A stretch of DNA of 37,104 nucleotides from Escherichia coli (lineage in GTDB: Bacteria > Pseudomonadota > Gammaproteobacteria > Enterobacterales > Enterobacteriaceae), in the NCBI RefSeq assembly GCF_003334315.1, contig NZ_QOWR01000047.1; one strand, written 5' to 3'. The position numbers and the translations under genes were made by a program. Position 1 is the first letter of the stretch; every line of letters starts with the position of its first letter. The notes under the pieces were generated by a model that made no database searches, was not told the DNA's origin, and saw only the letters and a program-made list of their open reading frames with translations. This document shows, piece by piece, positions 28,535 through 35,789 of this stretch.

Positions 28535-29242
<708 letters not shown>

Positions 29243-29323
29243 TGCTTTCAGCCCGCGTTGTCGCGGGCTTCCCATCTATAATCCTCCCTGATTCTTCGCT
29301 GATATGGTGCTAAAAAGTAACCA

Positions 29324-29348
29324 ATAAATGGTATTTAAAATGCAAATT
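29324..29348 (+). promoter_or_regulatory. NsrR-operator-like inverted repeat upstream of yeaR-yoaG
   Basis: AAATGGTATTT-A-AAATGCAAATT approximates the 11-1-11 NsrR site as I recall it; yeaR-yoaG is a known NsrR/NarL target in E. coli. Confidence 0.35.
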
Positions 29349-29414
29349 ATCAGGCGTACCCTGAAACGGCTGGAATAAACCGTTTTCAGCGCATTCACCG
29401 AAGGAGGGAAAAGG

Positions 29415-29774
29415 ATGCTTCAAATCCCACAGAATTATATTCATACGCGCTCAACGCCTTTCTGGAATAAACAAACTGCACCTGCCGGAATATTCGAACG
29501 TCATCTTGATAAAGGAACGCGCCCGGGGGTTTACCCACGCCTTTCCGTTATGCATGGGGCGGTCAAATATTTCGGCTACCCTGATGAACACAGTGCAGAG
29601 CCTGATCAGGTGATCCTTATCGAAGCGGGGCAGTTTGCGGTGTTCCCTCCAGAAAAGTGGCACAACATTGAAGCCATGACTGACGATACTTATTTCAACA
29701 TTGACTTCTTCGTGGCTCCTGAAGTCCTGATGGAAGGTGCGCAACAACGGAAAGTCATTCATAACGGGAAATGA
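29415..29774 (+). CDS. yeaR: DUF1971 protein YeaR
   Basis: 119-aa ORF MLQIPQNYIHTRSTPFWNKQTAPAGIFERH... Confidence 0.85.
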   Translation: MLQIPQNYIHTRSTPFWNKQTAPAGIFERHLDKGTRPGVYPRLSVMHGAVKYFGYPDEHSAEPDQVILIEAGQFAVFPPEKWHNIEAMTDDTYFNIDFFVAPEVLMEGAQQRKVIHNGK

Positions 29775-29777
29775 ATC

Positions 29778-29960
29778 ATGGGCAAAGCAACGTATACCGT
29801 GACCGTCACCAATAACAGCAATGGCGTTTCTGTCGATTATGAAACAGAGACGCCGATGACTTTGCTGGTGCCAGAAGTGGCGGCTGAAGTGATAAAAGAT
29901 CTGGTGAATACCGTACGTTCTTATGACACGGAAAACGAACATGATGTTTGTGGTTGGTAA
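29778..29960 (+). CDS. yoaG: DUF1869 small protein YoaG (60 aa)
   Basis: 60-aa ORF starting 3 nt after the yeaR stop. Confidence 0.8.
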   Translation: MGKATYTVTVTNNSNGVSVDYETETPMTLLVPEVAAEVIKDLVNTVRSYDTENEHDVCGW

Positions 29961-30622: not shown

Positions 30623-31648
30623 TCAGGAATGTAGCGCTGGATGCGCGACAAAAGGTGTTTTCTGTTTGTGTTTTTTCTCCTGATACATCGCAATATCGGC
30701 AGCATGCAGGGCACTGTCTGCATCGGTTGTTTCAGGATCGACTTCTACTATGCCAAGACTGGCACCGGGATAATACAAATCAACATCACCTAAGTGATAT
30801 TCTCCACGTATTTGCTGCTGAATGCGTTCTCGCAGCGACGAAATATCCGCATTCTCGTTGTTTAGTGAAACAACTAAAAACTCATCACCGCCGAGACGAC
30901 CAATAACTTCGCCATTTTGCTGGAGCGTATTAAGGCGCTCGCCAACCTGAATGAGAAACAGATCGCCACTATTATGACCAAAACGATCATTGATTAATTT
31001 GAAGTTATCCAGATCGATAAACGCGATCATTATCTTATGGTTAAGATGCCGGGCGAGGGAAAACAGTGTCGTCAGATTTTCAAAAATCGCCCGCCGATTC
31101 GGTAGCCCGGTTAACGAGTCGGTATACGATTGCGCAATCAGCGCAGCATTGGCTTCGCGCAGCTGTTCAACCAGTGCCTCTTTTTGAATATATTGTGCAA
31201 TCAGTCCGGCGAATAACTGTAAAACCTGTTCCGCGCGTTCACTCCACTGGCGCTTCTCACTGCTGGCGGCGCAAAGCGTGCCATAGAATGATCCATCCGG
31301 TAAGTGAATTGGCGTGCTCAGAAATGTGGTGATGCCAAGATTGCGTGCCGCAATACAGTCACCCCAACGGTCGGGGACTTCATCGCTGAAAAAGCAGTTT
31401 TCATCAATGGCGCGTTTGCATAACGAGTAATCCCACGAGACGGTAAAATTCTCCGGGATGTGCATTTTCTGGCTGTTACGGGCAAACATAATATGCTGCA
31501 GGCGCGCTTCGACATCCACTTTGGTCAGGTAGGTTGATTCCATATCAGTGACCATTTCCAGCATCTCCAGAAGCTGTCGGACCAGACTTTCCAGTGACTG
31601 TTCTTTGGCAAGGGATTGCGAGACGCGGGCGATAATCTGATCTGACAC
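30623..31648 (-). CDS. dgcP: diguanylate cyclase DgcP (YeaP), GAF-GGDEF
   Basis: GGDEF motif (RLGGDEFLVVSL); start placed at GTG (plus 31646-31648) giving 341 aa rather than the 384-aa maximum. Confidence 0.85.
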   Translation of the reverse strand: MSDQIIARVSQSLAKEQSLESLVRQLLEMLEMVTDMESTYLTKVDVEARLQHIMFARNSQKMHIPENFTVSWDYSLCKRAIDENCFFSDEVPDRWGDCIAARNLGITTFLSTPIHLPDGSFYGTLCAASSEKRQWSERAEQVLQLFAGLIAQYIQKEALVEQLREANAALIAQSYTDSLTGLPNRRAIFENLTTLFSLARHLNHKIMIAFIDLDNFKLINDRFGHNSGDLFLIQVGERLNTLQQNGEVIGRLGGDEFLVVSLNNENADISSLRERIQQQIRGEYHLGDVDLYYPGASLGIVEVDPETTDADSALHAADIAMYQEKKHKQKTPFVAHPALHS

Positions 31649-31830
31649 GGAACAACTCCAGGATACGGCGGGTAAATGCTGATTATTTAATCTTTGCAGG
31701 CATGATAAAACATCATCAACAAAGATGAAACAAGACGTAATATGTTTTGAGTGAATGTAATAAAAATAGTGCTGCAAAACAAAACGATACCGCGATACTC
31801 TAATCTTGGATAAATATGTGAGATCAATAA

Positions 31831-35285: not shown

Positions 35286-35789
35286 TTACGCAGTGCGGCG
35301 GAAATTGACCAGTTCTGGTTGCGCAATGCGCAAATAATCCGCGGTTTTCAAAATAACGGATTTATCCAGCATGCCTGCATTGAAGGCGATTTCATCAAAT
35401 CGTTCGAAGAGTAGAGGGTCGGCAACCAGTTTGAGTTTTGGATGGAAGCTGAAAGGGGGGATCGCGCCGAAGACACAGCCTGTGAGTTCATCGACTTCCG
35501 CCGGGCTGGCCAACGAAGCGCGTAATCCGCCTATATGGCTGGCGAGTTGGCTCAGATCGGCCTGTTGATCGGCTGCGAGGATCGCCAGAACATGTTGATT
35601 TACGCCATTGCCTTTGACTTTACATACCAGTGCCTTAGCACCCTGGCCTAGAGCGGTGCCACGAATTTCTGACACCGCTTCACATTTACCTACCGCTTCA
35701 TGGGTAACGACGCGGAAGTCAGCACCTTCTTGTGATAATAAAGCGATTAACCGCTGATGCGTCACGCTTCCTTTAGCCATTTCAGTCAT
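35286..35789 (-). CDS. yeaK: YbaK/ProX-type aminoacyl-tRNA deacylase YeaK
   Basis: 167-aa ORF; its stop codon abuts the yoaI stop. Confidence 0.85.
   Translation of the reverse strand: MTEMAKGSVTHQRLIALLSQEGADFRVVTHEAVGKCEAVSEIRGTALGQGAKALVCKVKGNGVNQHVLAILAADQQADLSQLASHIGGLRASLASPAEVDELTGCVFGAIPPFSFHPKLKLVADPLLFERFDEIAFNAGMLDKSVILKTADYLRIAQPELVNFRRTA

Follow-up and report, generated by a model that had tools for sequence, protein, structure and literature searches.

The analysed window, which comprises 37,104 nucleotides in its full length, represents the leuE-yeaR-yoaG region of the chromosome of Escherichia coli. Of 5426 complete E. coli genomes, 5418 contain the 351 bp surrounding the operator described below, annotated there as leuE and yeaR, and the RefSeq annotation of K-12 MG1655 gives the gene order dmlA, dmlR, leuE, yeaR, yoaG, yeaQ. 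The intergenic region between leuE and yeaR has a length of 172 bp and contains an NsrR-type 23-mer, which is located 67 nt 5' of the yeaR ATG (29415). The promoter block of 55 bp around this 23-mer (29314-29368) is 100% identical in K-12 MG1655. The coordinates of the features are summarized in Table 1. Minus-strand ORFs of 40-47 aa also overlap the region; the sequence crossed by them is unconserved between genera. Further downstream, the ORF of dgcP (30623-31777, minus strand) comprises 384 aa from a TTG start, compared to 341 aa (1026 nt) in the RefSeq annotation of K-12. This difference in length consists only of an upstream extension to an earlier in-frame start.

Table 1. Features of the leuE-yeaR-yoaG region; positions are counted from the first letter of the window, and negative numbers are relative to the predicted transcription start.
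Feature	Position	Strand	Basis and remarks
leuE, end	29242	+	ORF list
NarL 7-2-7 activator site, TAACCAA-TA-AATGGTA	29318-29333	.	published site, centred at -43.5
NsrR operator, 11-1-11 inverted repeat AAATGGTATTT-A-AAATGCAAATT	29326-29348	.	centre 29337 = -32; spans -43 to -21
-35 hexamer TTTAAA (predicted)	29334-29339	+	-35 to -30; 4/6 to TTGACA; wholly inside the NsrR operator
-10 hexamer TACCCT (predicted)	29357-29362	+	-12 to -7; by arithmetic from -43.5; 3/6, with T-12, A-11 and T-7
Transcription start +1, G (predicted)	29369	+	16-mer centre between 29325 and 29326 = -43.5
yeaR 5' leader, 46 nt	29369-29414	+	5'-terminal hairpin 29369-29390; Shine-Dalgarno AGGAGG 29402-29407
yeaR CDS, 119 aa, DUF1971 protein	29415-29774	+	ORF; RefSeq annotation of the identical K-12 region
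yoaG CDS, 60 aa, DUF1869 protein, second gene of the operon	29778-29960	+	ORF list; K-12 annotation

In the first-pass annotation, an NsrR-like operator of the 11-1-11 type had been proposed within 29324-29361, and the sequence given for it, AAATGGTATTT-A-AAATGCAAATT, is present exactly as written and lies inside this interval. The complete 23-mer reads AAATGGTATTTAAAATGCAAATT, and 8 of the 11 positions agree between its two arms when one of them is reverse-complemented. A matrix for NsrR was built from the 16 distinct 11-1-11 sites that were positive in ChIP-seq (PMC5320621, Table 4) and palindromised, with the yeaR site excluded. Determined with this matrix, the yeaR 23-mer scores 20.9-21.0 bits, compared to 12.9-31.0 bits for the training sites with a median of 18.0 bits. 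The weight-matrix scan for NsrR, which had been named as a check on the operator, consequently places the site at 21 bits and above threshold. The runner-up 23-mer in the whole 37-kb window reaches 9.0 bits, by which the yeaR site is ahead by 12 bits. The probability of the yeaR score per position amounts to 4e-8 for a uniform background, 9e-8 for the intergenic composition and 8e-7 at 70% A+T, so at most about 1e-4 matches at this score are expected in the intergenic region; among Markov-1 random windows, 1 of 200 equalled it. Both half-sites contribute, with 11.5 and 9.8 bits compared to a training median of 9.9 bits. The A at 29346 in the right arm is the sole strongly disfavoured position of the 23-mer (-5 bits). 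Altogether, the scores confirm that the match of the 23-mer to the NsrR motif is far beyond chance.

The same 23-mer was listed verbatim by Mehta et al. 2015 as the predicted NsrR site of yeaR (Table 4 in PMC5320621), where it showed a PatSer ln(P) of -17.05 compared to the authors' threshold of -14.28. The operator proposed upstream of yeaR-yoaG is thus backed by its score of 21 bits as well as by an identical published site. In the same work, NsrR is described as an [Fe-S], NO-sensitive repressor and yeaR as 'known to be regulated by NsrR', with references to Filenko 2007, Pullan 2007 and Lin 2007. In cultures that were grown with nitrate and produced NO, expression of yeaR and yoaG rose about 160-fold, which places both genes among the most strongly induced ones (PMC5320621). 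The yeaR locus was also reported to be under NarL and NsrR regulation by Conover et al. 2016 (PMC4959519). The nitrate/NO control of the operon, likewise put forward in the first-pass annotation, is therefore supported by the NsrR match together with the literature (PMC5320621, PMC4959519).

The published NarL site of the yeaR promoter is the 7-2-7 sequence TAACCAATAAATGGTA. It is centred at -43.5 and was resolved in a cryo-EM complex at 3.2 A, and it is described as lying 'just upstream of the -35 element', with the yeaR -35 being 'intrinsically weak' (PMC10853779). According to Ruanto et al. 2020, a single 7-2-7 site suffices for the activation of yeaR (PMC7419079). This NarL site and the NsrR operator share 8 bp, with which the former ends and the latter begins. 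Compared to the NarL consensus, the site shows only 5+5 of 14 matches, which is chance level, as 73 such 7-2-7 pairs were observed and 71 are expected per 37 kb. Counting of consensus matches cannot tell real from chance NarL sites and was not used as positive evidence. The assignment of 29318-29333 to NarL is instead based on the published structure and genetics (PMC10853779, PMC7419079) and on the strong conservation described below. The best match to the NarL 7-2-7 consensus in the window (13 of 14) is TACCGCTTCATGGGTA at 35691-35706, which lies inside the yeaK coding sequence, as calculated by the offset from the K-12 annotation. By our own estimate, about 0.3 chance matches of this kind are expected per 37 kb, and this match is probably fortuitous.

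With the centre of the NarL 16-mer at -43.5, the predicted transcription start falls on G29369, which fits the de novo RNA starting with G in the cryo-EM scaffold (PMC10853779). The assignments of -10, -35 and +1 depend on the published NarL coordinate of -43.5 and not on sequence. The resulting spacer between the hexamers comprises 17 bp, which agrees with the 16-18 bp expected for sigma-70, and A-11 and T-7 are present as well. A scan for consensus promoters and terminators in 29150-29500 with a threshold of 9/12 found none, which can be explained for the promoter by a total of 7/12 for the two hexamers. Such weak hexamers are in line with a promoter that needs an activator and whose -35 is 'intrinsically weak'. 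In these coordinates, based on the published NarL centre, the NsrR operator is located within the promoter and overlaps core elements including the predicted -35. Its centre at -32 agrees with the position that was reportedly given for the yeaR NsrR operator in the 2007 abstract of Lin, Bledsoe and Stewart, who are also said to have mapped this operator by mutation.

For a comparison across genera, one genome per species was scanned, and 26 yeaR loci could be used. They come from Escherichia (coli, albertii, whittamii and others), numerous Citrobacter, Salmonella enterica subsp. arizonae and diarizonae, and Silvania. The alignment covered the 175 nt preceding the ATG, and the identity fractions refer to the 21 non-Escherichia sequences compared to the window. 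The alignment showed a single, sharply bounded conserved island at 29318-29362 with diverged flanks on both sides. The mean identity was 0.89 for the NarL 16-mer, 0.82 for the NsrR 23-mer and 0.89 for the -10 hexamer TACCCT. In the flanks it was lower, with 0.25 in the 45 bp upstream and 0.35 in the leader. Each of the 26 loci had the top NsrR match of its 181-nt upstream region at the aligned position, with scores from 11.4 to 24.2 bits, and only the site of S. diarizonae (11.4 bits) was below the training minimum of 12.9 bits. The spacer to the -10 hexamer comprised 17 bp in 26 of 26 orthologs. In the 25 orthologs from Escherichia, Citrobacter and Salmonella, T-12, A-11, C-8 and T-7 of this hexamer were invariant, and variation was confined to positions -10 and -9 (TACCCT, TAACCT, TACTCT).

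Within E. coli, the 55-bp promoter block was 100% identical in 4767 of the 5426 complete genomes, compared to only 1387 genomes with an identical and only 2033 with a detectable copy of the adjacent 55 bp. Two variant strains that were sampled showed SNPs at 29317, 29318, 29360 and 29367, which leave the NsrR 23-mer unaffected.

The NarL 16-mer was identical in 20 of the 26 loci, carried one substitution in 2 and was replaced in 3 Citrobacter. In these three, which belong to the Citrobacter sedlakii/amalonaticus group (L006, L010, L023), TAACCAATAAATGGTA is exchanged for TGCCCCTTTTGGTGTA, aligned to 29318-29333. The new sequence fits the NarL consensus slightly better (6+5 matches), and the overlapping NsrR site stays at about 21 bits. 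From these sequences, the replacement looks like an activator-site turnover within a fixed repressor site. In Silvania hatchlandensis (L026), an NsrR-type site with 23.2 bits (AAGTCGCATTTTAAATGCATTTT) was found upstream of the yeaR homologue, and no NarL-like 7-2-7 sequence adjoins this NsrR site (3+4 matches). This pattern suggests that the Silvania lineage may be under NsrR-only control. Since a site of 23 bits is present there without a NarL-like 16-mer, the conservation of the NsrR site does not merely follow from that of the NarL site.

The heptamer TACCCTG had been considered a possible NarL half-site in the first-pass annotation. It is present downstream of the operator at 29357-29363, reaching 2 nt past the end of the interval proposed at that time, and its interpretation as a NarL half-site was not supported. 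A function of this heptamer in nitrate control, either beside the upstream site or replacing it, is highly improbable, although 5 of its 7 positions fit the NarL heptamer consensus TACYYMT, as many as in each heptamer of the genuine NarL site, and although the hexamer TACCCT is kept across genera. A match of this quality is at chance level: 3322 heptamers with at least 5/7 were counted on both strands of the window, which corresponds to one per about 11 bp, and ACGGCTG as the 7-2-7 partner of TACCCTG shows 4/7 only. Such counts do not prove that TACCCTG is free of NarL, but nothing supports its binding. Furthermore, TACCCTG extends from -12 to -6 on the -10 hexamer. Activation-compatible positions lie upstream of the -35 or abut it, and NarL bound at -12 to -6 would hinder open-complex formation instead of activating. 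The conservation likewise follows a -10-like pattern, with T-12, A-11 and T-7 being invariant and the C at the third position of the would-be TAC core changed to A in 8 taxa. In addition, a single 7-2-7 site at -43.5 was published as sufficient for full activation (PMC10853779, PMC7419079). Position, conservation pattern and literature agree that TACCCTG is most likely the -10 element of the promoter and not a NarL half-site. The NarL assignment was thus misplaced, as the published site is found at 29318-29333 and its promoter-proximal heptamer had been taken only as part of the left arm of the NsrR operator. A different promoter would result from TAAAAT (29336-29341) inside the operator, which with 5/6 matches to TATAAT is a far better -10 than TACCCT; in this case NsrR would cover the -10 and not the -35. 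We regard this arrangement as the least probable of the readings considered here and extremely unlikely, since 17 bp upstream of TAAAAT only AAAAGT is found, which is no plausible -35, and the promoter scan was empty. It would also move the NarL centre to about -22, which is incompatible with activation, contrary to the published numbering and the cryo-EM complex, which place NarL at -43.5 (PMC10853779), and the conserved downstream block GCGTA(C/A)CCT would stay unexplained.

Another explanation concerns the NsrR operator itself. The conserved A+T-rich block could owe its conservation solely to NarL binding, the -35 and Fis binding, with an indirect effect of NsrR on yeaR. In favour of this, NsrR ChIP-seq in aerobically grown CFT073 gave no yeaR peak, which its authors suspect to be a probable false negative, and the K-12 ChIP-chip targets of NsrR listed there do not include yeaR (PMC5320621). 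The title of Squire et al. 2009, cited in PMC10853779 and PMC7419079, names a Fis-dependent repression competing with NarL at the yeaR promoter, and the conservation of the left arm is ambiguous, as this arm overlaps the NarL site. In contrast, the right arm does not overlap the NarL site and falls largely in the spacer, which normally drifts, and yet it showed an identity of 0.78 in the 21 non-Escherichia sequences. The variants observed in the right arm move towards the NsrR consensus, as for example AAATGCATATT and AAATGTATATT in Citrobacter. The probability of the full 23-mer is about 1e-7, Silvania carries its 23-bit site at the same place without a NarL-like 16-mer, and the operator was reportedly mapped by mutation in the 2007 study mentioned above. 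Regulation of yeaR by NsrR has moreover been reported by several groups (PMC5320621). An indirect effect of NsrR is consequently very unlikely. The missing ChIP signal is the main weakness of the direct reading. The conservation data rather argue that it may be caused by the conditions or by competition and not by an absent site, and the footprint across genera provides independent computational support for direct binding of NsrR despite the ChIP-seq without a peak.

Altogether, we assume with high confidence that 29318-29369 is the promoter core of yeaR-yoaG, a compact composite control region activated by NarL and repressed by NsrR. The NsrR motif is present, significant and conserved across genera, and it overlaps the NarL site. 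The best-supported reading of this geometry is a competitive switch between activator and repressor on a weak promoter. A weak sigma-70 promoter (TTTAAA, 17-bp spacer, TACCCT, +1 at 29369) would need phospho-NarL at its only 7-2-7 site. In the presence of nitrate or nitrite, phospho-NarL recruits RNA polymerase via the alpha C-terminal domain, a step which is shown by structure (PMC10853779). NsrR bound to its operator would cover the promoter-proximal NarL heptamer, the entire -35 and half of the spacer. Since the operator overlaps the -35 and the proximal NarL heptamer, holo-NsrR should block sigma region 4 and exclude NarL at the same time; occlusion and competition are deduced here from the geometry. 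It is known that NO inactivates the DNA binding of NsrR. Accordingly, nitrosylation of the iron-sulfur cluster by NO would release NsrR, by which the promoter would be de-repressed. A Fis footprint reportedly overlaps the NarL site in the work of Squire et al. 2009, and going by the title of that work, competition of Fis with NarL would add a growth-phase repression.

The occurrence of a strong NsrR site in every genus examined, including Silvania without a NarL-like 16-mer, leads to a reading in which NsrR control is the ancestral, invariant layer and NarL activation was added later on top of the left NsrR arm, with the exchange for TGCCCCTTTTGGTGTA at a retained NsrR score in one Citrobacter subclade. 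We consider this layering a tentative proposal that is rather doubtful at present. If it were true, the relief by NO would be mechanistically upstream of the activation by nitrate.

The leader of yeaR contains a hairpin with 7 bp, GCUGGAA[UAAACCGU]UUUCAGC, which begins exactly at the predicted +1 (29369-29390) and has a folding energy of -8.7 kcal/mol. The leaders of Citrobacter and Salmonella (L006-L025) are unrelated in primary sequence, and each showed a hairpin starting 0-4 nt from the predicted +1 in single-sequence folds. RNAalifold on the MAFFT-aligned leaders gave no consensus structure. The hairpin may represent a 5'-terminal stabilising stem-loop, and a conserved 5'-terminal hairpin of the leader would possibly add a post-transcriptional layer to the control. 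On the DNA level, an inverted repeat AAACGG / CCGTTT with a gap of 10 nt (29364-29385) straddles the predicted +1. It is nested in CTGAAA / TTTCAG (29361-29389), is Escherichia-specific and overlaps the leader hairpin. The repeat at 29364-29385 could equally be a protein-binding palindrome.

At the other end of the intergenic region, a G+C-rich hairpin, AGCCCGCG/CGCGGGCT, was observed at 29250-29269, 8 nt past the leuE stop, with -16.4 kcal/mol and a z of -4.5. Across genera this hairpin persists, although both of its arms have changed (GCCCGC/GCGGGC, ACCCGC/GCGGGT). The U-tract behind it is poor (UUCCCAUCU), which explains why the terminator scan missed the hairpin. Probably this hairpin is the leuE terminator, which insulates the yeaR promoter. 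An Rfam scan of 29200-29460 on both strands identified no family; its only hit, a CRISPR repeat, remained below threshold and is a chance match (17 bits compared to a gathering score of 45, E 0.76).

The NsrR operator and the control by nitrate and NO are already known and were published for this exact sequence. As the yeaR-yoaG promoter is a characterised case of overlapping NarX/NarL nitrate and NsrR nitric-oxide control, the results matter little as a discovery. The useful outcome is the correction of the NarL site, which is 29318-29333, interleaved with the left arm of the NsrR operator, and not TACCCTG. Due to this interleaving, activator and repressor should compete for the same DNA. Whoever mutates one site, or employs this promoter to sense nitrate or NO, will consequently affect the other site, too.

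Compared to the published yeaR-yoaG promoter of E. coli K-12, the locus and its sequence are the same and the control region shows no differences. The NsrR 23-mer corresponds letter for letter to the one in Table 4 of PMC5320621 and the NarL 16-mer to the one in PMC10853779, and the only departure was the placement of NarL on TACCCTG instead of TAACCAATAAATGGTA in the first-pass annotation. Like the NsrR operators of hmp, ytfE, hcp and ygbA, the yeaR operator has the 23-bp 11-1-11 geometry with an ATTT-N-AAAT centre and outer AA/TT, and it overlaps core promoter elements. With 21 bits it exceeds the median of 18 bits of the ChIP-positive sites, while its palindrome is less perfect than that of ytfE, with 8 of 11 symmetric positions and the disfavoured A at 29346. 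Unlike hmp, ytfE, hcp and ygbA, the yeaR operator is interleaved with a NarL site and gave no ChIP-seq peak in CFT073. No mention of an NsrR operator at the ogt promoter was found in the cited literature on NarL and NsrR promoters. In its activation, the yeaR promoter resembles that of ogt, where NarL also activates alone and does not need Fnr, its 7-2-7 site lying directly next to the -35, and where Fis likewise competes with NarL (PMC10853779, PMC7419079). Contrary to ogt, which requires two 7-2-7 sites at about -44.5 and -77.5, yeaR requires only one (PMC10853779, PMC7419079).
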